From Phyllobates terribilis (Eukaryota): a stretch of 64,000 bases of DNA. Of the stretch, positions 16,292 through 57,699 are shown in pieces (positions within the stretch are counted from its first letter, which is position 1; every line of letters starts with the position of its first letter). Made by a program: the position numbers and the translations under genes. A model generated the notes under the pieces. The model searched no databases. It saw only the letters and a program-made list of their open reading frames with translations, and was not told where the DNA came from. The stretch covers positions 368,342,001-368,406,000 of the forward strand of contig NW_027362767.1 of NCBI RefSeq assembly GCF_046119375.1, given 5' to 3'.

Positions 16292-16745
16292 GCACAAAGT
16301 GCCTACATTATAAATAGTTACCCAGTAGGGTATTGCTTATTGTTTATTGTGTAAACTGAAATTAAATGTGTGCCTGTAGTTACCCGTCAGGGTACAGAGA
16401 CTTGTAGGCTGAGGACTGTGAGCAGCCAAAAACTTTATTTGTAAATAGTTTCACTCATCAAAAGTGCCCCCATAATTGACCACTGAGCAAAAACCCATTT
16501 GGCGTGGCCGAATACGTGGTCCAGCACCTGGATCACTTATGCCCTGTAGCCACGCCCAGGGCCTACGTTGAGGGTTTTCAGGCGGGTCCCTCATGTTACC
16601 CTTGTTACACTTTCTTCGGTGAAATGGACACCTGGTTACGGGACTTACTGTAACTTAATTATTGTTATTATTATAATTGTTATTATTGTTGTAACCTGTT
16701 ACAAAATGCTTCAGTCCAGGAGTACTGAATTGTACTAGGGGGGAA

Positions 16746-31644: not shown

Positions 31645-32715
31645 CTGCGTGATCTCTCGGCTGTTATCCTTGACATCCACTTGTGTCCTAGGGAGGGTGC
31701 TTTGCCAGTTTCTCCATGAGGTGTACCAGCTCAATGATTTCATATTATCTGACTTCTGCTCTGGTCCATTTTAGCAACTGTTCTGCTCCTGATAAATCTA
31801 GTGCCATGCTATGAGTGTTGTTTTGCCACATTCTACATCAAAGTAAACTATAAGTTACCGGGGTATCCTGATGTTGCCTGTTCATTTTCTTGAGCTTCAT
31901 ATTATCAACCCATTGACGAAGACTCTATAAACCACTAAATTGTATTTAAAACGTGACTTCTATACAATTTATGAAACCTATAAATATGATGTATGACACA
32001 AATTAATGTAGAGAATTATTTTATTTAAATTAAAACAAATTAATAAACAACAATAAAAAATATAGGGGACAAGAAACCAAGTGGAAAAATGCGGAGAAAG
32101 TGGGAAAATACAATCAGATAGCAGCATAAATAATTACATAAAAGATGACAAGTATATCAAGTAAAAATGCTGAATTAAATATCCAATAAATGAAAGGTCA
32201 GTGTAAATAGAATTGGTTCCGGTAAAAATGAAAACTAAATGCAATATGTACAAAATCTCATGATAAATATATCCACTAGTGTGGTTAAAAAAAGTGACAG
32301 TGCAAAGTATAAAAATAAATATATACCATCAATTATATTATATATACTACAATGTATTGTGTAGAGAGGATGCAAAGTATTAAATATAACTAGTAATAGG
32401 GCAAAAAAGTGACAGAGCAGTATATGGAAACATAGGTAGATATACACTATATACACTATATACTCCAAGAGATGTAAACTAAAAAAATGACAGTGCAGCG
32501 TATATTGACATAGATAGCTGGTACAGAGACATATTGCACATAGAGAAGATGTCAAGTAAGGGAACCAACAGATGAAGTCATTAAATAAAGTGCTAATTCA
32601 TAGAATAAAGAACAACTGACCAATGTAGGTAAATCCCACTCACCAACCGCCACTTCCAACGTGCGTTTCGTCTGGGCTTTGACAGGTGACAAAGCCCAGG
32701 CGAAAGTCCTGGTAG

Positions 32716-33312
32716 TGTGAAAGTTTCACCAATTTAAGATACACTAGATAACTGCTCTCCTCCAAATTAAAGATGTCCGAATGCATGCAAAGAAGCTAAT
32801 TAACCAAATCTACTAATCTGGTTGAAAAACTTCACTCAGAGACTGAACCACGCAAATGGCATACTTTATTATGTAGACATGGGGTTATATAGTATTCTCC
32901 TTCTAGGTGGGATTAGTAAAATGTATTGCTCTTTTCTGATAACTCGGCACACTGTAATTTGTTCATTTATGTATCTCCTGGCCTTAGTAACGCCTTAGGA
33001 ATTCCTATGGGAGGGGGTGAGTTCGTCTCTCAGCGCCATCTTTGCCAACTTGACATGAATCTCTCTGTTATCAGCCATGCACATGCATACGTCATTCCCA
33101 GGAAATCATTTAGTTGTTTATGTCTACAAATAAGAACAGAAGCTGTTAGTTATATATTTATTAACTATTAATATAATTCATGTGCATATACACATTTGCA
33201 TACATACATACACATAGATTATTCCACCATCTCTATATTGATTCACACTTATTAGGTAATCTGTTAAAAGAAACTAATTGATTTTCTATAATATATATAT
33301 TTTACCTTGACA
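32716..33312 (-). repeat. ERV 3' LTR
   Basis: Matches 45685-46277. Purine-rich tract (minus strand ...TTTTAGGGGGGTC) adjoins at 33313. Confidence 0.95.
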
Positions 33313-34826
33313 GACCCCCCTAAAATCAATTATTTCCTTTTAACCCCTTAATAACATCTGACGTACTAATACGCGTCTGTGCCCTGGGACTTAAGAGCCA
33401 GACCCATATTAGTACGTCATCGCGATCGCGCGCGCACACAGGCTGTGCGGGCGCGATCGCCGCCGGGTGTCAGCTGATTGTCACAGCTGACACCCGGTAC
33501 TATGTGCAGGGAGCGGTCCTGCACCGCTCCCAGCACATTAACCCCCGCGATGCTGCGATTGAAGTCGATCGAAGTCGATCGCGGCATTGCGGGGGCAAGG
33601 GGAGGTGATCGGCGATACTCACCTCCTCTTCCGGCTTCCAGCGCAGTCTGCAAAGGCTTCCCGGGTGTTGCCATGACGACCCGATGTCGTCATGACAACA
33701 TCCGGGTCACCAGAGAGCAGGAAGATTGCTTGGACATGCGCAGTTCATCTCCAAGCAATCTTCACACTGTGCACTTCTGACAGCCTTCATGGCATAGGGA
33801 TGGTGCTCCATTCCTGTGCCATGCAGGCGATCAGAAAAAAAAAGGTGAAAGTCCCAGAGTGGGACAAAGTAATAAAGTGTATAAACTGTGTGAAAGTGGG
33901 GAAAAAAAAAAAAAAATGTGCAAAAATATTATAAAAAAATAAAAAAAATAATACACCAAAAATAAAAATATAATGTACCCATCAATAAATATTATTATAA
34001 AAAAAATAAAAAAAAAACAATAAAAGTACACATATTTGGTATCGCCGCGTCCGGAACAATCTGACCTATAAAACTGTCCCACTAGTTAACCCCTTCAGTG
34101 AATACGGTAAAAAAAAAAAAAAAAAAAACGAAGCAAAAAACAATGCTTTATCACCATACCGCCAAACAAAAAGTGGAATAACACGCGATGAAAAAGACGC
34201 ATATAAATAAAAATGATACCGCTGAAAACGTCATCTCGTCCCGCAAAAAACAAGCTGCCATACAGCTCCATCAGCCGAAAAATAAAAAAGTTATAGCTCT
34301 CAGAATAAAGCGATACTTAAAAATATTTTTTTCTATAAAATAGCTTTTATTGTGTATAAGCGCCAAAACATAGTAAAATGATACAAATGTGGTACCGCTG
34401 TAAACGTACTGACCCGAAGAATAAAGCTACCTCATCAATTTTACCACACGCGGAACAGAATAAAAAAAAAAAAAAAAAAACAATTCCTGAATTGTTGTTT
34501 TTTGTTTATTCTGCCTCCCAAAAATCGGAATAGAAAGCGATCAAAAAATGTCACGTGCCTGAAAATGGCACCAATAACAACGTCAAGTCATCCCGCAAAA
34601 AACGAGCCGTCACATGACTGTCTGCCAAAATCTGGAAAAATTATAGCTCTCAAAATATGGCGATGCAAAAACTAGATTTTACAAAAAATGCGTCTTTTAG
34701 TGTGTGACAGCTGTCAGTCATAAAAACCCCATATGATTCTGGCATTGCTGTAATCACACCGACCCGAAGAATAAAGTCGTCTAATCAATTATACCGCACA
34801 AGGAACGGCGTCAAAAATAAACTCTT

Positions 34827-34939
34827 GGGTTAGGATTGGGCTAGGGTTAGGGCTGGGTTTGGGGCTAGGGTTAGGGCTGGGTTTGGGGCTAGGGTTGTGC
34901 TGGGGCTAGGGTTGTGCTAGGGTTAGGGCTGGGGTTGGG
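34827..34939 (+). repeat. Telomere-like G-rich repeat (GGGTTA/GGGCTA/GGGCT variants)
   Basis: Directly visible GGGTTAGGGCTGGGTTTGGGGCTAGGGTTAGGG... Confidence 0.85.
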
Positions 34940-34981
34940 ATTTTTTTCAAAAGTAAGAAAAAAAGATGACGATATGGCGAC

Positions 34982-35281
34982 TAGTGTTGAGAGCAAGTGC
35001 TCGCTACTTGAGTTTGCATCGGGTGCTCTGGTATGCATTGAGTATCGTGGGTATTTGAGTGACATGCTCGAGTCTCTGCCCCATATGCTTCGCGGCCAAA
35101 AAACTTTACGGGGATTGCCTGCCATGCACGAGCGATACCCGCATGTTTTTTTTTGGGTGTCTAATAACCGTGAAACATGCGGAGCAGGGACTCGAGCATG
35201 TCACTCGAGCACACGCTGTACATGGTGCATACCTGAGTACCCGATGCAAACTCAAGTAGCGAGCACTTGCGCTCAAGAATA
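34982..35281. mobile_element. 300-bp hAT MITE nested in the TTAA element
   Basis: ~47-bp TIRs starting TAGTGTTGAG. Decayed 8-bp TSD ATGGCGAC / ATGACAAC. Confidence 0.85.
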
Positions 35282-35369
35282 ATGACAACTTATTCAATAT
35301 GATGACCTAATGTAAACAAATAATGTGCCGTACCTCTGGGTTCAAAATGTTCACTATACACCTTAATAA

Positions 35370-37730
35370 AATCCTTGAGGGGTATAGTTTCCAAAATGGG
35401 GACACTTGTGGGGGAGCTCCACTGTTTAGGCACATCACGGGCTCTCCAAACGCGACATGGTGTCCGCTAACAAATTGAATGGAAAATCGGCTCAAATTGT
35501 TAGCGGACGCCATGTTGCGTTTGGAGAGCCCCTGTGTGCCCAAACATTGGAGCTTCCCCACAAGTGACCCCATTTTGGAAACTAGACCCCCCAAGGCACC
35601 TATCTAGATGCATAGTGAGCACTTGGAACCCCAAGGTGCTTCACAAATTGATTCGTAAAAATGAAAAAGTGAAAAAAAAAAACACTTTTTCATTTTTATG
35701 AATCAATTTGTGAAGCACCTGGGGTTCCAAGTGCTCACTATGAATCTAGATAGGTGCCTTGGGGGGTCTAGTTTCCAAAATGGGGTCACTTGTGGGGGAG
35801 CTCCAATGTTTGGGCACACAGGGACTCTCTAAATGCAACATGGTATCCGCTAACAAATTGAATGGAAAATCGGCTCAAATTGTTAGCGGACACCACATTG
35901 CGTTTGGAGAGCCCCTCTGTGCCCAAACTTTGGAGCTCCCCCACAAGTGACCCCATTTTGGAAACTAGACCCCCTAAGGCACCTTTCTAGATGCATAGTG
36001 AGCACTTGGAACCCCCAGGTGCTTCACAAATTGATTCGTAAAAATGAAAAAGTGAAAAAAAAAACACTTTTTCATTTTTATGAATCAATTTGTGAAGCAC
36101 CTGGGGTTCCAAGTGCTCACTATGAATCTAGATAGGTGCCTTGGGGGGTCTAGTTTCCAAAATGGGGTCACTTGTGGGGGAGCTCCAATGTTTGGGCACA
36201 CAGGGACTCTCCAAATGCAACATGATATCCGCTAACAAATTGTCGGCTCAAATTGTTAGCGGATATCATGTTGCATTTGGAGAGTCCCTGTGTGCCCAAA
36301 CATTGGAGCTCCCCCAAAAGTGACCCCATTTTGGAAACTAGACCCCCAAGGCACCTATCTAGATGCATAGTGAGCACTTGGAACCCCAGGTGCTTCACAA
36401 ATTGATTCCTAAAAATGAAAAAGTGTTTTTTTTTTCACTTTTTCATTATTACGAATCAATTTGTGAAGCACCTGGGGGTTCCAAGTGCTCACTATGCATC
36501 TAGAAAGGTGCCTTGGGGGGTCTAGTTTCCAAAATGGGGTCACTTGTGGGGGAGCTCCAAAGTTTGGGCACAGAGGGGCTCTCCAAACGCAATGTGGTGT
36601 CCGCTAACAATTTGAGCCGATTTTCCATTCAATTTGTTAGCGGATACCATGTTGCATTTAGAGAGTCCCTGTGTGCCCAAACATTGGAGCTCCCCCACAA
36701 GTGATCCCATTTTGGAAACTAGACCCCCCAAGGCACCTATCCAGATGCATAGTGAGCAGTTGGAACCCCCAGGTGCTTCAAAAATTGATTCATAAAAATG
36801 AAAAAGTGTTTTTTTTTCACTTTTTCATTGTTACGAATCAATTTGTGAAGCACCTGGGGGTTCCAAGTGCTCACTATGCATCTAGATAGGTGCCTTGGGG
36901 GGTCTAGTTTCCAAAATGGGGTCACTTGTGGGGGAGCTCCAATGTTTGGGCACACAGCGGCTCTCCAAACGCAACATGGTGTCGCTAACAATTTGAGCCA
37001 ATTTTGCGTTAAATTTGTTAGCGGACACCATGTTGCATTTAGAGAGCCGCTGTGTGCCCAAATATTGGAGCTCCCCCACAAGTGACCCCATTTTGGAAAC
37101 TAGACCACCCAAGGCACCTATCTAGGTGCATAGTGAGCACTTGGAACCCTCAGGTGCTTCACAAATTGATTCATAAAAATGAAAAAGTGTTTTTTTTTTC
37201 ACTTTTTCATTGTTACGAATCAATTTGTGAAGCACCTGGGGGTTCCAAGTGCTCACTATGCATCTAGATAGGTGCCTTGGGGGGTCTAGTTTCCAAAATG
37301 GGGTCACTTGTGGGGGAGCTCCAATGTTTGGGCACACAGGGACTCTCTAAATGCAACATGGTGTCCTCTAACAAATTTAACGGAAAATCGGCTCAAATTG
37401 TTAGCGACACCATGTTGCGTTTGGAGAGACGCTGTGTGCCCAAACATTGGAGCTCCCCCACAAGTGACCCCATTTTGGAAACTAGACCCCCCAAGGCACC
37501 TATCTAGATGCATTGTGACCACTTGGAACCCTCAGGTGCTTCACAAATTGATTCATAAAAATGAAAAAGTGTTTTTTTTTTTCACTTTTTCATTGTTACG
37601 AATCAATTTGTGAAGCACCTGGGGGTTCCAAGTGCTCACTATGCATCTAGAAAGGTGCCTTGGGGGGTCTAGTTTCCAAAATGGGGTCACTTGTGGGGGA
37701 GCTCCAAAGTTTGGGCACACATGGGCTCTC
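35370..37730. repeat. Array of ~6 x ~382-bp units, each made of two inverted arms
   Basis: TTTCCAAAATGGGG recurs at 35388, 35772, 36154, 36526, 36908, 37290 and 37673. Its reverse complement occurs once between each pair. Confidence 0.92.
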
Positions 37731-38817
37731 CAAACACAACATGGCGTCCGCTAATTATTCAAGCAAATTTTACAATCAAAAAGTCAAATGGCGCTCCTTC
37801 CCTTCCGAGCCCTGCCGTGCGCCCAAACAGTGTTTTTTCCCCAAATATTGGGTATCTGCGTGCCCAGGGGAAATTGCACAACAAATTTTGGGGTCCATTT
37901 TTTCTTGTTACCCCTGTGAAAATAAAAAAAATTGGGTCTAAAGTAACATTTTTGTGAAAAAAGTTAAATGTTCATTTTTTTCTTCCACATTCAAAAAATT
38001 CCTGTGAAGCACCTGAAGGGTTAATAAAGTTCTTGAATGTGGTTTTGAGCACCTTGAGGGGTGCAGTTTTTAGAATGGTGTCACTTTTGGGTATTTTCTG
38101 TCATAAAGACCTCTCAAAGTGACTTCAAATGTGATGTGGTCCATAAAAAAATGGTTTTGTAAATTTTGTTGGAAAAATGAGAAATCGCTGGTCAACTTTT
38201 AACCCTTATAGCTCCCTAACAAAAAAAAATTTTGGTTCCAAAATTGTGCTGATGTAAAGTAGACATGTGGGAAATGTTATTTATTAACTCTTTTGTGTGA
38301 CATATCGCTCTGATTTCAGGGCTTAAAAATTCAAATTTTGAAAATTGCAAAATTTTCAAAATTTTTGCCAAATTTCCGTTTTTTTCACAAATAAACGCAA
38401 GTGATATCGAAGAAATTTTTCCACAATCATGAAGTACAATATGTCACGAAAAAACAATCTCAGAATCAGGGGGATCCGTTGAAGCGTTCCAGAGTAATTG
38501 CCTCATAAAGTGACAGTGGTCAGAATTGTAAAAATTGGCCCGGTCATTAACGTGCAAACCACCCGCGGGGCTTAAGGGGTTAATATCCATATGCTAAAAA
38601 TCAGAGGGGGAGAAGAATTGACCCTATGTTAAGGCTATTCTGGAACCCTACAATGTGACGGGCTCCCCGTCCCTTTCAGACAGACCCACCGACGTTTCTA
38701 AATCTAACTCAAACGAAGACCTACAGGAAAGGGATGGAGACCCTAAAAGATCTAGTGACTGGGTAATCGAGGGCCACCCCTAACACAGAAATATGGATAT
38801 TAACTTTACAAACTCAT

Positions 38818-39351
38818 TTACTTCCGGTAATCTCTCTGGTACAACACTTTTGTTCTAAGGAGAACTGTTTGTTCATAGATTTTGAGAGCCTTAGTAACTT
38901 TCCCTGTGGGACCGGTATTGTCTGGGATATAAGTACAACAATGCTCACCTATCATTTTGCATACCCCTACTTTTTCTGCAAGTAACATATCCAGAGCTAT
39001 TCTGTTTTGGAAGGCCATGGTAGATGTGGGTGCTGGTTGGTCAGCTATCCCTTGTAAGGCATCTTTGGTGTAATTGACAAATCTTTGTTGGTTATAATAT
39101 ATGTAATTTATCCAATCTACGTTCCTGTTAACAGTTATTATGGGTATTATGGACTCAAATCCCGCCTTCACTTGGTCTTGGGCCTTGAATTCGTCTGGCA
39201 CCCCCCTAAGCACTCCGAGAACATCAATATATATATGTGGGTCAAAACTTCCTTTGGGGTTAACTTCTCTCTTGGCCCTGTATGTGCCTGCAAACGCAGC
39301 CTTTATTTTCTTTTTGGATTCCTGGGACTCAGATATAAGGTAAACAGACAT
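38818..39351 (-). pseudogene. env: ERV env remnant (SU/TM junction and TM ectodomain); most of SU and the TM C-terminus are missing
   Basis: Furin site RAKR, ISD QNRIALDMLLAEKVG, and CKMIGEHCC (CX6CC). Confidence 0.9.
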
Positions 39352-39529
39352 TATTGCTTTATTTAAGGCACATTCCCCAGTCTATTGGCCCTCCAATCTA
39401 ATCCTAATCATCATGTCACCACATTCAAGGAAGTGTTGTACCAGAAAACTGGAATATCATTCTGTTTAGTAATAATTGCTTGGAATGCACGTGTTACCGT
39501 AACAAAGGCTTCCCCCCCAGCTACTGTCA

Positions 39530-42511
39530 TCAGACAAAGGAACATCGGGGTTGTGGGTCTGAGACCACCTTCTTGCAATGGGATGTGTGGACCCATGATG
39601 TTTGGCCTTCGACCTTCACAGCAGTATGTGATGTAAGCAACACTTGGTAGGGCCCTTCAAATCTGGCATCCAGTATGCCTCGCACGTGATTCTTTATCCA
39701 GACAAAATCTCCAGGCTGGATGCTGTGAGTACCTGGTTCAAGATCTGAGTCTGGAATAGAAGAGTACACTGGAGCATTTGTTAGTTTTAACTCTTTAGCA
39801 AGTCCGACAACAAAATTCACAAGCTTATCATTCCCTGAACTAAGCTGCTCTGGGTAATATCGACCCATTCTAGGTGGCCCCCCAAACAAGATCTCATATG
39901 GTGTGAGCCCTGCGGGTTGTCTCAAGGTATTTTGGACTGAGTATAGGGAAATAGGCAGCACCTCCGGCCATGAAAGTGACAATTCTTTACTGGCTTTAAG
40001 AATTTTGTTTTTTAAAGTGCCATTCATCCTTTCAACTTTGCTGCTACTTTGAGGATGATAAGGAGTATGCAGGCCCAAATCCGCCGCAATCATCTCCCAG
40101 ATTGATTTGGTAACTTCTGCAGTGAAGGCGGGTCCTTGATCACTTTCAATCACTTCTGGAATCCCTAATCTGCAGATAAGTTCTGCCAGAAGCCTTTTCA
40201 CTGTAGTTCTAGCAGTCATGTTGGTTACTGGGTATGCTTCTGTCCAGCTGGAAAACATATCCACCACCACCAGAACATACAGTTATATGAAAAAGTTTGG
40301 GCACCCCTATTAATCTTAAGCTTAATGTTTTATAAAAATTGGTGTTTTTGCAACAGCTATTTCAGTTTGATATATGTAATAACTGTTGGACACAGAAATG
40401 TTTCTGCCTTGAAATGAGGTTTATTGTACTAACAGAAAATGTGCAATCTGCATTCAAACAAAATTTAAGTTCCATATTCATCTGCATATCTGGACCCGTC
40501 AGTATACAGTATCAGATCCGCTTCAGGCATTGGCTGCTCAGAGACAGTAGGTAGGTGAGAGGGTTCTGCCTTCATGACCTCAAGGCAATCATGGTCACTT
40601 GAATCAGGGTATTCATGGTCTTCTGAGGACCCCCCTAATTCTTCAGAGCAGTCCCCCCTCGACAGAGGAAGCAGAGTGGAGGGGTTCAAGACAGTACATC
40701 GCTGAAGAGCTATATTTTCTGGTAAAAGGAGCTCACATTGGATTCTGACACGACGTTGCATAGATAGATGGTTGTGCTGGGTTTGTGCAAGGATAGCTTT
40801 CAAATCATGAGGGCCTAATATAGTTGTAGGATGGCCAAGTACAACATCTGCTGTTCTGTGGAGGAGTTCTGTAGCTGCCAGCACTGCTTTGAGACATGTT
40901 GGAGCTGTTTGCGCCACTGGATCCAATTTACTGGAATAATATCCGATGGGTCTCATGCGGCCTCCATGTTTTTTTTTTTTTGTGCCAGAACTCCTGAGGC
41001 ATGGCCACACGCTTCAGATACAGATAGAAAGAATGGAAATTCATAGTTGGGAATCCCCAGTGCAGGGGCTGAAATGATGAGTTCTTTCAACTGGTCCATT
41101 GCATCTTCAGCTTCTTGGTCAAAATGTAGGTCAAGCTCAGAAGAGTGGACCTGATCATATAGAGGTTGCATGAGAGCTGACACATTAGGGATCCACTGCC
41201 TGCAGTATGTGACCATTCCCAGGAAGGCTTGGAGTTGTTTGACTGTTCTCGGGTACGGGATGTCACGGATGGCAGTTTTTCTCTATTCTGTGAGATGCTT
41301 CGTACCTTGGGATATGCAATGACCCAAAAACACAACTTTGGTACAACACCATTGTAGCTTTCACAGAGTAACTTTGCATCCGATGGTGGCCAGAAATTGG
41401 AGCAAAGAATAGCTGAACCTGTGGCAAGTTTGGTCGTCGGGACAACAGAGGAGTAGATCATCGACATATTGTATCAATATGACTTCAGGGTTCTCACTCT
41501 TCCAGGGTTGGAGACAGGTAGTTTAGGCCAGTGTGAAGTGATGAGGAGAGTTCTGAGCTCCTTGAGGCATAACGGTCCAGGTGTACTGTACTCCTCTGTG
41601 CGCAAAAGCAAAAAGATACTGACAGTCTGGATGCAGGGGCACACTGAAGAAGGCACTTGCCAAGTCGATTACTGAAAAATGCGTTGCCTCAGGGGGAATT
41701 TCACTGAGTAATGTATGTGGATTTGGCACCACTGGGATCTCCAGGATTGTAACTGCATTCACAGCTCTCAGATCTTGCACCATCCTGAATTTATCCAGTT
41801 CTCCTCTTGCAGTTTTCTTCTTCACGGGAAGCAATGGAATATTAGCAGGAGAAACACAGGGAATTAATGCTTCTTTCTTGAGTAATTCTTGCATCTGGGC
41901 ATCTAATGAAGCTTCTTGGGCTGCTTTCAGTGGGTAGTGTGGGAGTCTGGGAATCCGTGCACCTTCTTCAGGAAAACTTGGACTGGCGGGACAGGCAGAC
42001 GGCCAATACTATCAGGACCTTGAGACCAGAGTTCAGGTGGTATCCAGTCAAGATAATGCTGTGGTATGACGGTTGTCGCAAATTGGATGACACACAATTG
42101 GAGGGCATGTACCTTTGCTTGTTCCTCTTATGATAATGGAGTAGACACATCTAGATGCATTCCATTCTCATCATATGATATCTGAGCATTTAACTTCTGG
42201 AGTAGATCTGCTCCCAACAAATTAAGCGGGCAGGTGTCTGAAGTGAGCAATCTGGCCAGCAGCTTCTGTTCTTTCCCAATAGGCAATGGAAATGTTAGTC
42301 GGGATGAGTGTGGTTTTCCATCCACTCCCACACATGAAAGGAAATCATCAGATATAAGCGATTCATAGGGAAAATCTCTTGACCGTATTACTGATCTGGC
42401 TGCACCCGTGTCTACTAGGAAAGGTAAAGTTCTGTCCTCTACATCAATTTTGACAGTAGAAATCAGTCCAGATTTAGTGGGGACGTTTGCAACTGAGGTC
42501 AAGGTGAGCAC
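39530..42511 (-). pseudogene. pol: ERV pro-pol (PR, RT, partial RNase H, IN core)
   Basis: FLVDTGAARS (PR); QDLRAVN, IDLASAFFSVPL, PQGAQNSP and QYVDDLLL (RT); YTDGS (RH); VDMFSSW, SDQGPAF and HPQSSSKVERMN (IN). Confidence 0.93.
40280..40466 (+). mobile_element. Truncated Tc1-like terminal fragment replacing the RNase H-IN junction of the ERV
   Basis: TA|CAGTTATATGAAAAAGTTTGGGCACCCC is a Tc1-type TIR start. ERV coding sequence is lost across it. Confidence 0.7.
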
Positions 42512-42526
42512 GGGCTTGCCACTGTC

Positions 42527-44907
42527 CTATGCGGGGTAATTCTGATCTTCCCCCGCAAACCGACATGGTGGGTCCCTGTTATTTTGGTACATCTGTTGCG
42601 GTGGCTGGTCTCTGTAATTCTGCACAGGTTCTCTTGGCGTTGTCTCATACTCTCTCTGTGGTGGCTGCCGTGATGGCTGTCTATACTTTTGGCAGGAGTA
42701 CCGTGGATTCCCTTGGTAGCGTGGAGAATCTCTTCTTTCAAATTGCGGGTTGTAAGAGTGGCATCGAGCCATAGAAAGGATTCCCTCTTTTCACTGGACA
42801 TCCTCCTCTGAAATGACCCAGTTGGTTACAACGGTAACAGATTGGTTCCCTTAGTCTTAAACTCGGTCCTCTGTACATTTGTTTCTCTATAGCTTTAGCA
42901 ATGAGCAGTACCATTCGCGGGGACATGTCCACATATTCTGGTCTGGAGTCTGTAAGCATCGCTGAGATTTCCTCTCTGAGTCCCCTAACAAATGAAATGA
43001 CTAGCAGATTCTGTTGGATCCTCTGACCTTCATCAAACCCTTGATCCTTGAACAGAGTATAGATTCTGGTGTAAATTTTTTTTGACATTCTCCCCTGATT
43101 CTTGAGTACAGTCCAATACACTGGTAGATGAGTCTGTAAGCTGCTCCTTGGCCCATTGCTGAAGTTCTTGACAAAAAGCTCCTCCTGATTGGTAAGTCTC
43201 CTTGTCTGTCCCTTGGCTGTCATTTAGAGCTACTTGAATTATTGGCCAGAAGGCATCTCCCGCTTTAATTCTAGTGATGTCATGAAGATCTTTCTAAGTG
43301 GCTGAATAAGTTTGTTGAATTTGTCTGATTCTTCTGTAGAACGCCATAGGGTGTCAGTCTGGGTCAGGTAGTTGTCTAATCACTGGATAAACTTGCGAAG
43401 GTGTGAATGCCACATATCTATTATGGTAATCTGGCCCTGGAGATTCTGACTGAGAAGATGTTGAGGGAGATACTGGCAACACAGCAACAGGAGGGGAGTT
43501 AGTTTGTCCAGGAAATAGTTCATTCGGGTTATGTTGTGAGGTCATCTGGCGGCTGAGTGAGTCTGATCTAGCTGTGGCACTTTCCACAGCTCGGGTGAGA
43601 ATTTGAGATTTATGATAGTCATTGCTGATTAGTCTTATCTCCTCCAACATAGTTAATCTTCTATACTTCCGTACAGCTTGGACTATCGCTTGGGCACAGG
43701 CTTGCATAGGAAATCCATACATTCCAGAACTTATAGCAGGAAGAGCAATAGAAGTAAGGTTCCTTGTTCCAACATAGTTCAGAGTATTGTTGATTGTAGC
43801 TCTAAGGTGTGTCACACACTGATCATGATAATCTTCATCATACACATTCTGGGTATAGTGTGTATTGCGGCCTGTATTCTGGGTGTGCCAAGATGGCCGC
43901 CACCGGAAGGAAGCACACTACAGGAAGGGTGCGCCAACATGGCCGCCACCAAAAGGGACATCTGGTCAGAGGCCAGAGGTGATGCAATGGGTGTAGCAAC
44001 ATGGCCGCTGCAGGAAGGGTTGGAACTTTGGGCGGATATAGGTATAACAGATGAGGATGGGGCACTAGGAGTGGCTTGGATAGTAGCAAGGGGTGGGCCT
44101 CCTGGACGGGGCGCGTGACATGCAACGCAATAATCTGCTGACAATGGATTTTGCTGGCCACAATTAGAACACCCCCAACAATTCATTGCACTGCCATTAT
44201 AGGGCGGTGGCGGAGGCATGGTGGGGAGGGGAGGAACAGTGTGAGGTCTGGGACGTGGTGCCCCGCATGCAAGAGAAGTATCTCTATTATCAGGATTCAG
44301 CTGACTGCAATTTGTACAGGTCCATCCCCCGCATCCGCCATTATCGGGCGGTGGCTGGAGAGCAGTATCTTTGTAATACACATAACATGGCATCTTTCCC
44401 TTATTGTCTGTATTTTCTTCCTCCACCCACCCTTCTTTTGACAAATTCTCTGCTGTTCTATTCCAAGCCAAGGCTGTTTGTAACAATCCTTTATCTTCTA
44501 GCTTGCCCTTTTTCTTCTTCAAAATTTCTTGCTATTCTAGCAGCTGTAACCGGCCCTTATCTGGTAGCTCGCATATTTTAGTTAACTGTTTAAGTTTCTG
44601 CACATACTTTTTTACCTTTTTTTGACAAACTCGACGCAGCGTTTTTCCACATGTATTAACTTTGCAATGACCCATTATCTTCCAGTTTTCCCGTTTTCAC
44701 AAATTGCTGCATTCAACATCTCGTACTGTAATCTACCCCCTGGGTACAACCCACAAAATGACATTACTTTTTTGGTTTTCTCTACATATTTCCTTCCTTC
44801 TCTTCTAGCAACTATATCTTTGGGGTCCTGTAGCTCCTGATCGAGCAACCCCTGCAACACAAACAATGTCTTTAGTTTTTTCATGATTTTGGCTCCAGTC
44901 GTCCCAT
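42527..44907 (-). pseudogene. gag: ERV gag: MA (Met-Gly start), 2x RanBP2-type ZnF, macrodomain-like segment, CA, CCHC NC; frameshifted
   Basis: Motifs WTCTNCSQLNPDNRDTSLAC, WGCSNCGQQNPLSADYCVAC, SIALPAISSGMYGFP, YVAFTPSQV..IRQLPDP and CYRCNQLGHFRGGCP. Ends in a TAG in frame with pro. Confidence 0.85.
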
Positions 44908-45009
44908 CCCCTTAGACTTATGATCAGACCATGCAGCTGATACACAAGTAGAATTGTAACAAGTCCCTACACTCTCTACCAAGCACTCATTTGATTCTTT
45001 TACGACTTA

Positions 45010-45664: not shown

Positions 45665-45682
45665 ATCCGAGTCATGGCACCA
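45665..45682 (-). promoter_or_regulatory. ERV primer-binding site, tRNA-His
   Basis: Minus strand TGGTGCCATGACTCGGAT matches the tRNA-His complement TGGTGCCGTGACTCGGAT at 17/18. Confidence 0.9.
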
Positions 45683-45684
45683 TT

Positions 45685-46277
45685 TGTGAAGGTTTCACCA
45701 ATTTAAGATACACTAGGTAACTGCTCTCCTCCAAATTAAAGATGTCCGAGTGCATGCAAAGAAGCTAATTAACCAAATCTGCTAATCTGGTTGAAAAACT
45801 TCACTCAGAGACTGAACCACGCAAATGGCATACTTTATTACGTAGACATGGGGTTATATAGTATTCTCCTTCTAGGTGGGATTAGTAAAATGTATTGCTC
45901 TTTTCTGATAACTCAGCACACTGTAATTTGTTCATTTATGTATCTCCTGGCCTTAGTAACGCCTTAGAAATTCCGATGGGAGGGGGTGAGTTCGTCTCTC
46001 AGCGCCATCTTTGCCAACTCGACACGAATCTCTCTATTGTCAGCCATGCACATGCATACGTCATTCCCAGGAAATCATTTTGTTGTTTATGTCTACAAAT
46101 AAGAACAGAAGCTGTTAGTTATATATTTATTAACTATTAACATAATCCATGTGCATATACACATTTGCATACATACACATAGATTATTCCATCATCTCTA
46201 TATTGATTCACACTGATTAGGTAATCTATTAAAAGAAACTAATTGATTTTCTATAATATATATATTTTACCTTGACA
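45685..46277 (-). repeat. ERV 5' LTR
   Basis: Matches 32716-33312 and is adjacent to the PBS. Confidence 0.95.
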
Positions 46278-46619
46278 GTAGGACACTCATGAGTTTGAAG
46301 AACTGTCGCGCTTTTCTGTGATGTTGGGGGTATGTCCCGACTTCAATTGGATCTCTATCTCTCCACCTCTATCTCTCTATCTCTAGCTCTCTTCCCAGAC
46401 TTCCCACGGAACTCCGAACATTGCAACAGACTTCTGGGAGAAGTCCGTCTTTGGTGTTTAGTACCGAACACTAGCTGACCGTTACTTTTAAGTTCGGGTT
46501 CGCTGATCTCTACTGAGAATGTCACTACTTGAAGGTCTTGGCAGGACCTTCAGGTACCACCAAGACAGGCAACAGAGCCTAGTTCAGTAACACGGGAGCA
46601 GTGAGCAGCGGGACTGTAG

Positions 46620-49612: not shown

Positions 49613-50533
49613 TGTTAGGAGGGCGGTTGCAGACAACTTTATTATAATGGAACGCAACCGACCCGGGGTCTGCGATGCAGCCTGGAGGACTGCTGCCGAA
49701 CACTCTCCGGGTGAAACGGAAAGCAACCAACTTAAATGATAAACCCTTCCGTGTTACTGCACACAGGAATGGGTATAGAGGTTCGCTCTATCTCCGTTAA
49801 CAGCACGGGAGATGTGCAACCGGGAAACTATCTGTAGCCCTGTTAACTACACAGGGACTACACTGGCGGCGCTAGGATGCGTGTGTGACTACGCCGACGA
49901 GTACACGTGCCTCCAGCTGGCGTGCTACCGGACTACAGGGAATTACTCCACGTGTCTGACAGACGATGGCCATGAACAGGACGTCTGCAGGCTGCTCGGG
50001 GTGTTAGGCGACCCCTTTGGCTGAGCCAGACTGCTAGACGAAGCTACCTGCCTCTATGGAGCTAACCTGCCTCTATGGAGCTAACCTGCCTAGCGGAAAC
50101 TACACGTGGAACAGAGTCGTCCACACAACAGCATCACTGCTCAATGATCAGAGCGCGCCGCCATGTTTGTGGGCGGGCCTTTTAAAGACTAAGCCCTGCC
50201 CACCGACGCGCCATTGGTGACGCTACCCATGGACCAATCAGGCGGTGCCAGGTCACCAGGTCAGGTGGGTGCCAAACCACCAATCACGATCCGCCAGGTC
50301 ACAGGCATGCTCAGTGCGGCAAATCCTGGACTTAGACTCCAAAAGCCCTGTCTCCCTCTGCAACCTATGCTTAACGTTGCTAGGCACAAATACCCGGGAG
50401 ACAATCTGCACATCTCGTGGACCAGCTAGGCATTGGGGCTGATGACGATGCATCAGCCCTGGCTGGACCGAAATGGGAGACCGTAGAAGGTTCTGGACCC
50501 ATTTCGAATCCAGCAATAGACCGACGCCTAACA
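49613..50533 (-). repeat. 3' LTR of the sushi-like element
   Basis: TGTTAGGAG...CCTAACA, matches 61338-62247. Confidence 0.95.
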
Positions 50534-51653
50534 TTATCCCCCCTTCTAACAGCCCCTTCCACTTGACTCTCATTTTCCTCCATGAGCCGGGGGGCAAGAA
50601 TTAGGTCCACCGGGTCACAGAGAGGACTCACAGAACCGTGACCCCTCCGGTGTACAGGGTACCCTTTTTTAAAGTGGGGGGAAAACTTAGCAGACTCCCC
50701 GCATACTTCAGTATTGCGGGCCGAGAGCCACACTCTGTCGCCCGGATAGAATATGGGGACAGGGCGACGAGAAGTGGCAACCGACTCACTATGTGTGGAG
50801 TCCGTCACGGGTGACAGATGGGGAAGACCAACCGGACTTTGGCGGAAAGATTTAACTCTCGCACAGAAGGGACATGCGAGAACAATGTCCCTGACGTCCT
50901 GGCGCCACCGGGGCCACCAATAGGACCGTTGAAGGGACTTAGCGGTACGTTTGACCCCCAGGTGGGCTCCGATCTTAGGGACATGAGCCCAGGAGAGCAC
51001 CATATTCTGTAGATTAGGGGAAACAAACGTCCTCCCAGACAGAACCGGGTTAGAGGAAACTGCAGCCACCCTCTCTACCTGAGAGTTCTTTTTGACATAG
51101 TCTGACAAGACCCGGGTCCTGGGGACAGACAAAGAATCAGTACCGGCGGCCACATCGGTAGAGGGATCAGAGACTACCCTCCCGGTGACTTTGACCATAC
51201 ACTGAGATGCACAATTCTCACTAAAGGAAGAAATTCTCCCCATATTCCAGTCAATGTGTGGAGTATGACAGTGTAGCCAGGGGAGACCCAATAACACCTC
51301 GTCTAATCCACCGGGAATAATAAGAAATGAGATGACCTCCCTGTGGCCCTGAGGAAATTACATGGTGAGGGGAATCGACTGGTGTGTGATTTGCGTGTCC
51401 AGGAATGAACCATTGACAACACTAATGTTCATTGGTCTTGAGAGTAATTCTATAGGGATGGCATGCCTCTGGGAAAATGTAGATGATAAAAAATTGCCAT
51501 CAGCATCAGAGTCCACCCATGTCTTGGCAGTAACTGCAGATGTACCAAAAGACAATGTCACGTTATATAATAATTTGGAGGAAGAAGTCCCAGAATTTAA
51601 TACACCTCCTCCAACGGTGGTAAGACCTACTCGTTTTCCCGACTGCTTGGAAC
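50534..51653 (-). pseudogene. Protease plus fused integrase remnants (HHCC finger, GPY/F-like module) of the sushi-like element
   Basis: Motifs TWVDSDADGNF, VLLGLPWL, AHVPKIGAHLGVKRT...YWWPRWRQDVRDIVLACPFCAR and FYPGDRVWLS. No RT/RH motifs. Confidence 0.8.
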
Positions 51654-52154
51654 TAGTGTTGAGCCACCCGCGTAGTGTTCGAGTTCGGTTCGGTTCATCG
51701 AACACCCGTGTGTTCGCCGAACTGTTCGTCGAACTGTTCGTCGAACACCTTCGAACACCGTTAAAACCAATGGCAGGCAAACAAAAACACATAGAAACAC
51801 ATAGAAAACACCTTCAAAGGTGTCCAAAAGCTGACAAACTGCTCAGAAGACACAACTAACACATGGAAAAGTGACAAGTACATATAGTCATGCGAAAAGA
51901 AAAGAGGTGGAGGAGTAAAAGGAGGGGGAGACACAGATATAGGCATGTCATGCCCTTCTAAAATCCAAAAAGTGAGAAGCCGAGACGGCCAGTCCGCTCC
52001 TGCCCATGCCACCTCCGTGTCGCCGGGTTTGTGCCAGAGCCGCGGTGAACCCTGACGGCCAGCCCCCCTCTCCCAATACTGGTGCCTGTCCGGTGGTGGG
52101 TCGAGAGAGCCCCCCTGTGGTGGAGGCAGCTCTAAGCTTTTTAATTTAAATTGT

Positions 52155-52431
52155 CCCTCTAATTTGAATGAATACACTTTAAATCCATTTACAAGGATCT
52201 ATTGGAGGGCAAGTCTCATGCCAGCAGCCGCGTAATTCCAGCTCCAGTAGGGTCCACTAAAGCTGCTGCAGTTAAAAAGCTTTTATAAGGATCGAGCTCG
52301 GCTGTCCACCGCAAGGCATCCTAGTGCCAGTCCCAGCCCCTATGCCTTGGGGTGCTTCCTGATGCTCTTCACTAAGTATCCCGTGGTCCCGAAGCATTTC
52401 CTTTGAAAAAATTAAGTGTTCAAACTACAGG
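52155..52431 (+). pseudogene. Diverged 18S rRNA fragment (530-loop region into V4) inside the hAT
   Basis: CACTTTAAATCC...ATTGGAGGGCAAGTC..TGCCAGCAGCCGCG-TAATTCCAGCTCCA...GCTGCAGTTAAAAAGCT...CCCGAAGC.TTT.CTTTGAAAAAATTA.GTGTTCAAA is collinear with vertebrate 18S as recalled. Confidence 0.92.
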
Positions 52432-52526
52432 TGGTGTAGCTTGCTTAACAGCCGGGATAATCCGCTGACTAGCAGACACTGCTACTAGGCACAAAGTATT
52501 TCCTGGGCTAGATGCAGTTAAAAATT

Positions 52527-54348
52527 TGTAAGTAGATACTCTCGTTGGATGCTGAGAAAGCATTCCATAGAGTCTCCTGGCACGCCATATATGATTCTCT
52601 TAAAAAGCTTGGGGTAGGGGTCTAGGGGACCCTTTTATAGCCAAAATCACGGCCCTGTATCACAATACGTCACCTAGGCTGAAGATAAATGGAACTGTAG
52701 CACCGAGGGCTCGGTTGCTACAGACGTATTGCACCTCACCCAGAGGTGTGATATCTCACTCTCAGATAAGGATGGAGTGTGGATCAGGACCCGACACCTG
52801 CATGCATTACACCACATTGCCCTGGGGCAGGGCGACCAATATGCCCCTGAGATGGGCACGACAGTCCCTGTCCCTGGCTGGAGTGGGGGGAGGGAACACT
52901 GAGGAAGGGGAACCCTGCAGTGCAGGAGCAGGGAGGAAGCAGTTCCTGGGTGCATTGAGAAGGGAGTATAAAAGGTGGGCACCATCTTAGTTCAGTGCAG
53001 AGAAGTCTGAGCAGAAGTGGCAGGGAGCAGGGGCTCTGCATGAGCTCTGCTCCGGAGGCGGGCCTAGTAACAGAGGCCCAGGCCTGCAAGAGGGAGAAGG
53101 AAGGAAGAGGAGCGGAGAAGGCTCCAGGAACGAGGAATGAAGGGATCCCAGGGGTGCGGACGGGCGAGTCGCCACCGCACGCCCGAATCCACCTGCGTGG
53201 AGGGGTCAGGCCAAAGGGGGAGACCGGTCCCCGAACTAGTGGAGGCAGGAAACGACCCTCAGCTAGAAACCGGAGGCTCTGACATTTTATGTGGCGCAGC
53301 CCCTTGCTCCACCCGCTAGGAAGGCACCACATAGGGTCAGGGAAACTGGCGCCAAGTTTACCAAGAGGAGGCCCGAGGCAGCCGGACAGAAGTGTTGGTA
53401 AGAAAGGCCAGACAAAGGACACACAAAGGGGGTCCTGTGAAGCGCTCCAAAGTTATCTGGGAGTTGTCTGAGCCCCTCACCTGGTGAGCACAGTACGACG
53501 TGGGCAGCCGTTACCTGCAGACGTGGTCTGGATAATAAGAACTGTGAGTAAAGGCCCTGAACTGCATCACTGACTCCGTGTCGTTACTGCTGCTGCCCTG
53601 CACCATCACCCCCATCCTCCGCATACACTGCCCTGAGGCTATACTCCTCCCGTGGGGAGTTATGCTACGCTCTGCTGCACCCACAACACCAGCCTTAGCG
53701 GTCTGCCCTGTAGCGGCGGTTCACTCTGACCGCAATCCACGGGTGGCGTAGTCGGACATTTAAACATCAAAACCACATAAATAGTTCCGCCACTGGTTTG
53801 ACCGCCCTGAGCCACGGAACCGGATCGCCGCCACGAAGACTACAACCACCAGCATCCACCAAAAAGGGTCCGGCTCCGGGTGTCCCAAGGCCCAGGGGGT
53901 GCGTCAGAACATTTTCATCACCTTTCACAATCACCAATGGGACAAGGCAGGGATGTCCTCTGTCCCCTCTCTTATACATCCTAGTGACGGAGCACCTGCT
54001 CTCATCAATTCGCCATAACCCCAATATTAGGTGGATTGAGGTGGGAGGCACCGAGTACAAGTGCTCTCTATTTGCTGATGATGTCCTAGTATATATCACT
54101 CAATCACATATATCCATCCCTGCTGTTATGGCTGAAATAGATCACTTTGTTATATGGTAAAATTTTAAAATCAATGCAGCGAAGTCTGAGGCCCTCGATG
54201 TCTCCCTCCCTAAATCCATATAGGATTCCATCCAGTCCAACTTTCCCTTTGCCTGGCCCTCACAGGGTATCAAATACTTAGGAATTCCTATTCATAGAGA
54301 CCTCTCCCATCTATGTTATCTTAATTTTGGGCCCTTTATTGAGCAATT
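52527..54348 (+). mobile_element. L1-clade LINE ORF2 (RT) fragment, split by a solo LTR
   Basis: LSLDAEKAF.RVSW ... RLKINGT|FSSPFTITNGTRQGCPLSP ... SLFADDVL ... IKYLGI. Confidence 0.9.
52696..53906 (+). mobile_element. Gypsy solo LTR (1211 bp)
   Basis: TGTAGC...GCGTCA with 4-bp TSD GAAC (52692-52695 / 53907-53910). AATAA at ~53533. Confidence 0.92.
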
Positions 54349-57300
54349 CCATACAGACCATGGTTGGCAAGTTAGAACTGTAAGATTCACTACGTGAACC
54401 ACTGGTGTTTTGTGGAAAAGCACATGTAAGATTCTGCAACAGTCTCTGCTGATACTCCTGCATGCGTGCATCCCTTTCTATGGCAGGAATAATTTCTGCA
54501 AATTTACTTTTGTACCGGGGATCTAACAGTGTGGCAACCCAGTAGTCAGGATTATTTCTAATTCTCACAATTCGAGGGTCATGTTGCAGGTAGTGCAGCA
54601 AGAAGGCACTCATGTGTGTTGCGCATCCAGGAGCACCAAGTCCCTGTTGTGTTGGTGGCGAGGTAACAATCATGCTTCCTTCCTCTGTCCTCTCCCCCCA
54701 ACCTCGCACAACAGAAATGTGATCAAGGTCTCCCTCATCTGATGAGTCTTCCATCAGTTCGTCCTCCACTTCTTCCTGGGCTCCTGCACCTTCCTCACTA
54801 GTTTGGCTGCTACCATGCGCCCTGGTAAAATCATCTCCCTCACCCTCACATGCCTGCCGCCCTGGTGCTGCCGACCGTCTGGACCTTGCAGATGTTAGCC
54901 CTTCCGCATACAACTCCTCCTCCTCTACTTCCTCCACCTCCTCTTGTGCCACCACCTGACTCCGAATTCTGTTTAACATGTGCTCCAGCATGTAAATCAC
55001 CGGAATAGTCATGCTGATAATGGCATCGTCAGCACTAAACATCTTCGTCGCCATTTCAAAACTGTGCAGAAGGGTGCATAGGTCCCTGATCTGAGACCAC
55101 TCCTCCAGCGTGATTTGCCCCACCTCTGAATCTCGTTGGCCCAGGCTATACGTCAGAACGTATTGCACCAGGGCTTGTCGGTGCTGCCACAGTCGCTGCA
55201 ACATGTGCAGAGTTGAATTCCACCGGGTAGGCACATCGCATTTTAGCCGGTGAAGTGGCAGGCCCAACGACTTCTGTAGAGATGTAAGTCGCTGAGCTGC
55301 GGGATGCGAACGGCGGAAGTGAGCACACAGCGACCGTGCCCTCTGCAGAAGGCCATCTAGTCTGGGATAGTGGGCTAAAAATTGCTGGACAACCAGGTTC
55401 AACACGTGAGCCATACAAGGCACGTGTGTGACATTGCCCCGGCGAAGGGCCGCACCCAGGTTTGCAGCATTGTCGCACACGGCCTTCCCTGGTTTCAGGT
55501 CCAGTGGAGACAACCATTCATGAAATTGGTTCTCCAGAGCTGACCACAACTCCTCAGCTGTGTGACTCACATTTCCCAGACATTTCAATGTAAAACCGCC
55601 TGATGACGTTGAGCCCTACTGCCAGCATAGTAAGGAGGTGTGCAGGATCCCTTCTGCGCAGTTAGAAAGCTTGTGGCATGACCAGACAGGCTTTGGGTGC
55701 AGGTGGAAGACCGAGAGGAGGTTGAGGAGGCAGAAGCAGTGGAGGAAAAATGACATAAAGAGGATTGACGCACAACTCGTGGGGACGGCAAGACTTGGAC
55801 AGCAGCCCCTTGTCCTGCTGTCACCATAGTTACCCAGTGCCCAGTCAGCGACATGTAACGCCCCTGTTCATGCCTACTCGTCCAAGTGTCTGTGGTGAAA
55901 TGCACCCTGTCACACACAGAGTTTCTCAAAGAAGCGGTGATGTTGTGTGCGACATGCTGGTGGAGCGCAGGCACACCTTTCTTTGAGAAGTAGTGCCGAC
56001 TGGGCATCTGGTACTGGGGCACTGCGACGGACATAAGGTCTCGAAAATCCTCTGTGTCCACCAGGCGGAAAGGCAGCATTTCTGTAGCCAAGAGCTTGCA
56101 GATGGTGAAATTCAACCTCTTAGCTTTCTCAAGGCTAGGAGGAAATGGTCTTTTACTTGTCCACATCTGAGGGACCGAGGGCTGGCTATTGTGCTTAGAC
56201 GGGGTTGATAAGGGTGTCCCCGGCAAACTGCCGGTCTGTGAGGAAGATGCAGGCGGACATGTTAGGTTGCCTTGATCCAAAGGTGGTGCTATCGATGTCG
56301 GACAGCGCTCAAGACCAGCTGGTGTTACCACCTCCAAAGAAAATGATGACCTGCCAATCACGCTGGCTGTTGCGGGTAAAGAGGTGGCAGGTCTGCGCCC
56401 CAAAACAGGTGTGACTGCTGTCCCCCCAGTCACAGAGGATGAAGAGGCCGTGGATGCACAAGATATGGCAGACGGTGGTTGGCCCGGCCGGCTAGACCGC
56501 ATTGTAGCACACTGAGCTTCCCACTGCAACTTATGCTTCATGTCCATGTGCCGGTTCATGCATGAAGTACTCAAACTATGTATTTTTTGGCCTCTACTTA
56601 GCTTTTGCTGACAAATGTTACAGATAACACGAGTTGGGTCATCTTTATCGATCTGAAAAAATGCACAGGCTATGCAAGGCTTAGCACCCATGCGACCTGA
56701 AGAGCCACCACGACTTGTGGTGAGAGGCAGAGTTGTGTTTGAGGATGCAGTTGTTGACGTGCTTCCAGTACTACGTCTCTGTCCAGGAAGGCGCAACCTG
56801 ACCTCGTCGTCACTAGCATCTTCCTCCACCTCCTCTGCTGACCTCACCTCTTGGCTGACTGTGGGTTGACAGTAAGTGGGATCTCCGACCTCATCATCAT
56901 CACCCTGTGCGTTATCACACCCGTCGTCCTCAGAGCCAACCTGTTCCTGCCCTGACAAAAAACTAAAGTTGTCGCTCCAATCAGGTATTTGAGTCTTATC
57001 ATCGTCTTCCTCATTGTCTCCACCAACAGGAGTTACAGTTTGGGAATGAGGGTCTACATTATGGTCAGAACCTTCTGCGTCTGGTCCTGGATCCGACTCA
57101 TAAAGATTCTGGGCATCAGTGCAGATCATTTCCTCGTCTGGATTCACAGAAGCGCTGGAGTCGACCTCTGATTCCCAGGCTATAGTATGAGTAAACAGCT
57201 CTGCAGACTCAACCATCTGTTCTACCTCATACTTAGACGGGCAGCTGGAGATTTGGGAGCTGTGAGGAAGCAAGTGCGATTTGGGTGACACCTTTGAGGA

Positions 57301-57585
57301 CTGGAGTATTTGTGATGTTGAAGTTGATGTGGAGGAGAGCCCACTTAAAGGAGCACTTGATATCCATTGAAGCACCTGCTGTTTTTGTGCCTCATCTGGA
57401 ATTTGTAGCGATTGGCGTGGCCGTAAGAAAGGGATCTTATCACATTGTCCGCTAAAAGAAGTAGACATTTTAGTTTGGCTGGAAGATGGTCTTTCTTCTG
57501 CACCTACCCCACGGACACAACCTTTTTTCCCCTTCCCAACACGCCTATTCCCCTTTCCACCAGCAGCAGGCCTTTTTCCACTCAT
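54349..57585 (-). pseudogene. hAT transposase (ORFs 55585-57585 and 54311-55588); dimerisation domain lost
   Basis: BED finger CNICQQKLSRG...CMNRHMDMKH, HFTTDTWTS, CMAHVLNLVVQ, CDVPTRWNST and ATLLDPRYK. Confidence 0.92.
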
Positions 57586-57699
57586 TTTGGTGGTTAACTA
57601 ATTCACAACTCTGGAGTTGTTTGCACAAAAAAACAATGGATGGTAACCGAGCAGAGCTGAGTGGCCAAACTGTGGTATTAGGCCAAAACTATTGGCTGG

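Follow-up and report, generated by a model that had tools for sequence, protein, structure and literature searches.

Macrodomains are established counter-defences of positive-strand RNA viruses. The coronavirus domain Mac1 antagonises PARP14, coronaviruses need this class of domain against PARP14, and viral macrodomains have been proposed to be captured from a PARP14-like first macrodomain (MD1) (PMC13224862; here and below, literature statements refer to the available parts of each source). Macro-domain open reading frames (ORFs) have been reported in fish epsilon-like endogenous retroviruses (ERVs), a finding credited to Basta et al. 2009 (PMC4977317; cited in PMC10499221). AnERV9 of Gastrophryne carolinensis is an anuran ERV with an epsilon-like Pol and a gamma-type Env, whose Gag carries two RanBP2-type zinc fingers, one CCHC knuckle and no myristoylation signal (bioRxiv 10.1101/2024.07.05.601823). 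Here we analyze a provirus in a stretch of 64,000 nucleotides from Phyllobates terribilis (assembly GCF_046119375.1, contig NW_027362767.1, positions 368,342,001 to 368,406,000; hereafter the window, numbered from its first nucleotide), for which a preliminary description had proposed a Gag with tandem RanBP2-type fingers and a macrodomain-like module between matrix and capsid. Our comparisons show a frog class I (epsilon-like) lineage that holds a complete MacroD/MD1-type macrodomain at the murine leukemia virus (MLV) p12 position of Gag. The window provirus is a dead member of it, in which the matrix core and the PPxY-plus-finger unit are duplicated and the macrodomain has been reduced to its C-terminal half.

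The window gag (42527..44884, minus strand) is broken. Read in order, it encodes two matrix-like repeats, two units that each join a PPxY motif to a RanBP2-type finger, the C-terminal half of a macrodomain, a capsid and a CCHC knuckle. The proposed macrodomain-like module is present in part: the SIALPAISSGMYGFP segment matched Pfam Macro (E=3.4e-9, 37.1 bits, cut-off 22), and only the C-terminal half is there, the match spanning profile positions 63-117 of 118. On the Pfam match, matches to solved structures in the PDB and the tree described below, we assign 43603..43872 (minus strand) to the C-terminal half of a MacroD/MD1-type macrodomain, with loop 2 (G-M-Y-G-F-P). Its best single blastp match among non-ERV rows was a PARP9-like MD1 (63.9 bits). 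The N-terminal half, previously called not convincingly recognisable, is in fact absent: a host-only profile applied to 43701-44950 in all six frames gave no trace of it (E=0.33 for the best other domain), and in a tblastn search of the window the relatives' residues ~165-402 had no match.

These relatives are intact Gag proteins of other frogs. A word-based search with the macro piece of the window gave, from 695 candidates, one match, to a fish PARP14 and to no Gag, and the same kind of search with the finger piece gave none from 1975 candidates, again no Gag. HMMER with the macro remnant returned 410 matches; the 150 listed were nearly all macro-PARP-like, and among them was one protein, P0046, that also matches the N-terminus, finger and capsid of the window gag. 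A search with P0046, in which 8000 candidates were scored, yielded five proteins including itself. Ascaphus truei accounts for four of them and Anomaloglossus baeobatrachus for the fifth, and their annotations say only 'hypothetical' or 'uncharacterized'. Each of the five has an N-terminal domain, a PPxY motif, one RanBP2-type finger, a Pro-rich linker, a complete macrodomain, a capsid and a CCHC knuckle, and the Pfam Macro match (PF01661) runs over the full length of the profile in all five (87.6-99.2 bits, cut-off 22). A structure model of the relative P0156 matched PARP9 MD1 (Z 9.3, root-mean-square deviation 3.5, 156 aligned residues), which adds weak support beside the sequence evidence because the model has low confidence in this region; its mean predicted confidence (pLDDT) over the full length was 41, and we used only its matches for the macrodomain and the C-terminal domain of the capsid. 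A genome scan with the Gag alignment gave 48 pattern matches, none of them confirmed, and an atlas search with the window macro piece gave leads that were all below 0.9.

A Macro profile match is thus found in the window, and every one of the five Gag relatives found carries the segment. As judged from sequence comparison, the macrodomain is a real part of the Gag of this viral lineage, and the order matrix, PPxY, RanBP2 finger, Pro-rich linker, macrodomain, capsid, CCHC is almost certainly lineage-wide. From the His strand of the macrodomain through the capsid the window copy is collinear with the relatives at 33-36% identity (P0046, P0156), and in the tree its remnant forms one group with the intact ERV macrodomains (support 96/92). 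The spacing from finger to His is 105 codons in the window vs 270-318 in the five relatives, making the window copy ~165-213 codons shorter in this interval; it lacks the adenine-binding Asp and loop 1, and of the functional loops retains loop 2 (M-Y) alone. Because the missing codons include the N-terminal half, this copy cannot encode a working macrodomain. Its remnant scored 69.8 bits with the host-only profile vs 48.6-61.6 for the C-terminal halves of the intact relatives, a value that is partly selection bias, the host set having been retrieved with the remnant as query; even so, it suggests that the remnant has not long decayed and makes a recent deletion likelier. The same copy has other large apparent deletions, in pol and env. 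The N-terminal half was probably lost in this copy or shortly before it.

When the two frog genera are compared, the macrodomain's N-terminal half shows 51-54% identity, on a par with the capsid (49-52%) and far above the linkers (25-34%). Hydrolase activity has been described as depending on an Asn or Ser and a Gly that flank loop 1, and on a hydrophobic residue followed by an aromatic one in loop 2 (PMC10221186). All five intact ERV macrodomains have the loop-1 Asn and the loop-1 Gly, and their loop-2 pair consists of a hydrophobic residue (Leu in three, Met in one, Ile in one) followed by an aromatic one (Phe in four, Tyr in one). Most first macrodomains of the PARP9-like (37 rows) and PARP14-like (44 rows) kinds share these determinants, and many of the 18 sampled rows of second and third macrodomains (MD2/MD3) lack them. 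PARP9 and PARP14 MD1 and coronavirus Mac1 hydrolyse glutamate-linked ADP-ribose (PMC10499325). From its residues, the intact domain most likely binds ADP-ribose and removes mono-ADP-ribosylation as PARP9/14 MD1 and Mac1 do, and we consider it fairly probable that in the intact members it is an active ADP-ribosyl hydrolase.

Among solved structures, the macrodomain of P0156 scored highest with PARP9 MD1 (122.6 bits) and PARP14 MD1 (102-104), ahead of YmdB (63), MacroD1 (56) and SARS-CoV-2 Mac1 (32), and in a tree without prokaryotes the ERV macrodomains were an unstarred sister to PARP9-like MD1. A capture from PARP9 failed as an explanation once prokaryotic domains 37-49% identical to the P0156 macrodomain were added. 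These came from a scan of prokaryotic genomes in which 518 of 600 stretches were confirmed as matches; the 80 best of them have this identity and score like host MD1s. This widespread prokaryotic subgroup is thus about as close as host PARP9/14 MD1, which bears on any claim of a PARP14 origin for viral macrodomains. It comprises Fervidibacter, Armatimonadota, Thermotogota, Acidimicrobiia and some archaea (L001-L080), with the macro match mostly near 501-1016. Macrodomains of plasmids (99 records) and phages (8 records) were more distant, at 25-39% identity among the matches listed.

The final tree held 72 rows, with 23 of the 80 prokaryotic domains; P0035 and the long branches (three P0008 domains, P0048 and P0003) were left out, and host rows had been labeled PARP9-like or PARP14-like by domain architecture. 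Two proteins stood out for their architecture: in P0145 a macrodomain lies inside a Deltex/RING protein, and P0110 joins DUF5587 to two PARP9-like macrodomains, possibly through a fusion in gene prediction. In this tree the ERV group lay outside the PARP9-like clade (98/96), and its deeper placement was not settled. Diagnostic columns were divided, 11 agreeing with host, 9 with prokaryote and 11 with neither. For the four Ascaphus domains, which had selected neither profile set, the host profile scored 15-20 bits higher than the prokaryotic one, and for the P0156 macrodomain the prokaryotic profile scored 4 bits above the host one. Loop 1 has a Leu in all five ERV domains and in the majority of host rows, and a Val in 72 of the 80 prokaryotic domains. 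The comparisons support a single old acquisition. On account of the biology and the loop-1 Leu, we lean slightly toward a host macro-PARP MD1 as the donor.

The domains of Gag enter the particle in stoichiometric amounts and are cleaved apart by the viral protease. A macrodomain placed in Gag would by its position be produced and packaged at Gag copy number and, from general retrovirology, probably freed by the protease. It could then erase interferon-induced PARP marks in the producer cell and just after entry, before viral gene expression. The PPxY motif, which recruits budding machinery, would serve budding, and the finger is probably an adaptor, with ubiquitin, Ran or RNA as candidate partners. 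We give even chances to the reading that the domain acts as a Gag-borne ADP-ribosyl hydrolase opposing interferon-induced PARPs, and consider the odds equally balanced that counter-defence is the role for which it was selected. A more specific version, in which an ancient frog retrovirus lineage captured a host PARP9/PARP14 MD1 eraser into Gag, kept it catalytically intact and delivered it to the target cell in a Gag-stoichiometric dose with each particle, is tentative and rather less probable. If true, it would make the domain a retroviral counterpart of coronavirus Mac1 in the form of a structural protein, and fossil evidence of ADP-ribosylation restricting retroviruses.

Several observations weigh against the counter-defence reading or parts of it. 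The C-terminal half of the macrodomain is just 25-32% identical between the genera, not above the linkers. The Gly that follows the loop-2 aromatic residue is replaced in all four Ascaphus proteins, and one of these, P0153, has lost the last strand-helix of the macrodomain in frame, a second damaged case. For the five relatives, which come from only two species, the comparison covers the proteins and not their genomic surroundings, and since both word-based searches missed them, relatives without the domain could be missed too. The selection bias in the remnant's host-profile score counts here as well. For the donor, approximately unbiased (AU) tests of the sister group rejected none of PARP9 (p=0.47), prokaryotic domains (0.46) and the PARP14 core (0.27). 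The capture of host-like domains put forward in the preliminary description thus stands in so far as the macrodomain is integral to the lineage's Gag (five Gags, two genera), and the hydrolase-type residues kept in all five are compatible with the anti-PARP countermeasure suggested there. Host capture would be one candidate origin, no placement being rejected.

The strongest alternative is that the macrodomain is a reader, docking the pre-integration complex on ADP-ribosylated chromatin or damage sites, with the finger perhaps adding a contact to Ran or the nuclear pore. It fits the location of the domain at the p12 position, MLV p12 being known to tether the complex to nucleosomes (PMC6021111). 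The best-conserved part of the macrodomain is its nucleotide-binding N-terminal half, and the best PDB matches of the window finger are the Nup153 and RanBP2 fingers, both of which would suit a tether. The window finger, however, has neither Thr-Phe nor Leu-Val following its second Cys, where the Nup153 alignments show Leu-Val; these pairs are signatures of RanBP2 subtypes, and Leu-Val has a role in Ran binding. Moreover, hydrolase-type residues, often lost in reader domains such as MD2 and MD3, are kept in all five proteins. We therefore regard a tether as unlikely, if worth keeping in view.

The retained hydrolase residues would serve equally well for a housekeeping enzyme that keeps Gag, the genomic RNA or the cDNA ends free of ADP-ribose while particles assemble or reverse transcription proceeds, independently of interferon, and nucleic acids are mentioned as substrates of MD1 and Mac1 (PMC10499325, PMC13224862). 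Yet coronaviruses need the same class of domain against PARP14 (PMC13224862), and Macro has no share in the atlas clusters closest to this capsid, which suggests that other retroviruses manage without a macrodomain; we hold this explanation to be improbable. A cellular fragment acquired once and tolerated in a flexible region of Gag would explain why this region withstands duplications and deletions and why the domain is damaged in the window copy and in P0153. Such a neutral passenger would hardly be conserved like the capsid between genera in its N-terminal half while the flanking linkers are not, nor keep its pocket residues invariant in five of five, and it is highly improbable. Long intact ORFs, and relatives known as proteins without genomic context, could also reflect host Gag genes under selection for a function in the host, for example in restriction or signaling. 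Such domestication is opposed by the occurrence of four divergent copies (60-77% identical to P0046) in a single species and by the location of the window domain in a long terminal repeat (LTR)-flanked provirus with pro-pol-env, and we see for it a slimmer prospect still. A one-off host PARP fragment inserted in the window provirus, although compatible with the half domain and with its PARP9-like best match, is rejected by the five intact Gags, in which the domain occupies the same site and collinearity extends across the macro-capsid junction, and by the grouping of the remnant with them.

We next turn to the remaining parts of Gag. The start had been placed at a Met-Gly near 44907, but the ATG-GGA there opens a frame of only 8 codons; the ATG at 44884 is the homologue of the relatives' annotated starts by alignment, and because those starts are gene predictions, the true start may lie further upstream. 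As the preliminary description stated, the copy is frameshifted: the gag frame is broken at four points (near 44692, 43861, 43078 and ~42790) and interrupted by four internal in-frame stops (44658, 44534, 43356 and 43296). The N-terminal part comprises two matrix-position repeats (minus strand). Repeat 1 (44614..44884) aligns with residues 3-88 of P0156 with 21/59 and 11/26 identities, a similarity equaled by none of 1000 shuffles, and repeat 2 (44415..44624) aligns with residues 24-93 with 36/70 identities. At the DNA level the repeats are identical at 121/199 positions (~61%), scoring 59 vs a maximum of 38 in 300 shuffles. By these alignments, repeat 2 arose when the matrix-like core, which is single in all five relatives, was duplicated in tandem long ago; given its age, the duplication probably existed already in an active virus. 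The name matrix rests on position because the fold search gave no clear match: with a single-sequence model of the N-terminal domain (pLDDT 51), the best match had Z 3.4, and Rous sarcoma virus matrix was among the ties at Z 3.0.

Both fingers lie where they had been described, with their Trp codons at 44324 and 44177, and the third ligand of finger 1 is indeed a Ser in place of Cys. The pattern W-x-C-x2-C-x3-N-x6-[C/S]-x2-C occurs twice when the window is read in six frames, and not once in 100 mononucleotide shuffles. Each finger is preceded by a proline motif, a feature that had been overlooked, like the tandem duplication of the matrix-like core. Unit 1 (44250..44354, minus strand), recognized by its motif and by repeat alignment to unit 2, joins PPPD to finger 1, and unit 2 (44103..44210, minus strand) joins a PPPY late-domain motif to finger 2, which has all four Cys; the units share 80/120 DNA positions, scoring 59 vs a shuffle maximum of 34. 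Finger 2 matched the Pfam RanBP2 family (PF00641) with E=3.2e-6, its 26.7 bits falling just below the cut-off of 27, a value reached by none of the proteins (Ascaphus 15.8-23.2 bits). In the Pfam scan of the window finger 1 had no match as a separate stretch, and the P0156 finger was absent from the RanBP matches at E<=0.05. The four-Cys pattern is shared by finger 2 and the single finger of all five relatives. Tandem fingers, which had been presented as part of the viral Gag, are by this comparison specific to the window copy or its sub-lineage.

Downstream of the fingers, a Pro/Ser-rich linker (43863..44102, minus strand), placed by spacing relative to the relatives, ends at or near the deletion junction. 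Its stretch GGGHLGTP resembles GGHLTTP of the P0156 linker, and just upstream of the junction (43902-44008, minus strand) are three short GCGGCCAT-T repeats, which we take to be a YY1-like motif. The capsid-like region and the CCHC knuckle reported earlier were both found downstream of the macro segment. The capsid (42870..43416, minus strand) was assigned by identity to P0156 (36% over the macro C-terminal half plus capsid), by the structural similarity of P0156 residues 693-780 with the C-terminal domain of MLV capsid (Z 9.8, root-mean-square deviation 2.9, 85 aligned residues) and by a capsid atlas search in which the top match was Gag_p30 (0.91). The single CCHC nucleocapsid knuckle (42798..42839, minus strand) had a Pfam E of 0.019, below the cut-off.

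The provirus is bounded by a 5' LTR (TG...CA, 45685..46277) and a 3' LTR (32716..33312), both on the minus strand and found by self-BLAST and mutual alignment (598 columns, 18 mismatches and 4 gap columns). A 4-bp target-site duplication lies outside both LTRs, at 46278-46281 and 32712-32715. Immediately past the 5' LTR is the primer-binding site (45665..45682, minus strand), presumably tRNA-His-like. The broken pro-pol (39533..42526, minus strand; Pfam RVP, RVT_1, rve and MLVIN_C) encodes a DTG protease, a YVDD reverse transcriptase (RT), and an integrase core with C-terminus, and is followed by an env remnant (38821..39381, minus strand; Pfam TLV_coat, E=8.8e-6) with the immunosuppressive domain (ISD) and CX6CC of the transmembrane subunit (TM), the surface subunit being mostly gone. 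The Pfam matches thus follow in the order protease, RT, RNase H-like, integrase core, MLV-type integrase C-terminus and TM remnant, and most of RNase H, together with the integrase N-terminus, is apparently deleted near 40300-40490. Against solved structures, the RT scored 99 bits with MLV RT, 57-64 with Ty3 and foamy RT and at most 39 with lentiviral RT. gag terminates in a TAG that shares its frame with pro, and readthrough of the gag-pro stop is described for gamma and epsilon retroviruses (PMC13517186). The LTRs, target-site duplication, primer-binding site, gag-pro-pol-env order and in-frame gag/pro stop, together with an RT nearest to the MLV type, an MLV-type integrase C-terminus and a gamma-type TM, identify the provirus as a class I (gamma/epsilon-like) ERV; the relatives and the anuran ERV literature suggest the narrower label epsilon-like. 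With its broken gag, its apparent large deletions in pol and env and an unrelated TTAA-flanked insertion of 5.2 kb between env and the 3' LTR (33340..38583, no strand assigned), it is dead. The insertion holds an array of ~383-bp units in alternating orientation.

Elsewhere in the window, a gypsy-like LTR element (8240-17785) has 1040-bp repeats that are 95.6% identical and contains frames for gag, RT and integrase. Another pol remnant adjoins it (18088-20681); the class of both was judged by eye. Long frames at 491-1093 (plus strand), 25250-28790 (minus) and 54311-57597 (minus) are, we presume, Tc1-type and hAT-type transposase-like. A 110-bp tandem satellite occupies 57555-59614, and two block pairs at 49613-52465 and 61338-63999 are 94-98% identical and ~11.5-11.7 kb apart.

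A hydrolase-type macrodomain in Gag, conserved like the capsid, would imply real ADP-ribosylation pressure on retroviruses, and would put an immune antagonist or a chromatin reader in a structural polyprotein. The five natural intact domains are available for assay in isolation, and the lineage offers an independent case for tracing viral acquisition of MD1-type domains. In Gag itself, the nearest likeness is MLV p12, which also fills the interval between matrix and capsid and also has a PPPY late motif. p12 is a short unstructured peptide, whereas the corresponding region of the frog ERVs is ~450-490 residues long and includes both a zinc finger and a folded domain of enzyme-like type. No retroviral macrodomain appears in the available parts of PMC12690878, PMC8672886, PMC4695847 and PMC7729036, and we found no description of a macrodomain within Gag in the open-access literature, subscription journals lying largely outside the search.

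RanBP2 fingers in a frog Gag were already known from AnERV9, whose two fingers and CCHC agree with the window copy; the main text of that preprint uses 'macro' 0 times, and the likeness is judged from its text description, with tables and supplements outside the comparison. The fish epsilon-like ERVs, compared here by the citing description, have their macro domain in 'additional open reading frames', whereas in the frog lineage it is fused within Gag. The best named sequence matches to the ERV domain are PARP9 and PARP14 MD1 (PDB 9qyd, 3q6z; PMC10499325, PMC10221186), with which it shares the H-x-G-G-L-A loop 1 and the hydrophobic-aromatic loop 2, and from the PARP9-like domains it differs in forming its own branch. 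The macrodomains of Coronaviridae, Togaviridae, hepatitis E virus, rubella and Iridoviridae have the same MacroD-class fold and a proposed anti-PARP role (PMC7729036), but these are non-structural or stand-alone proteins and distant in sequence, as the score of Mac1 illustrates, whereas the frog ERV domain lies within the structural polyprotein.

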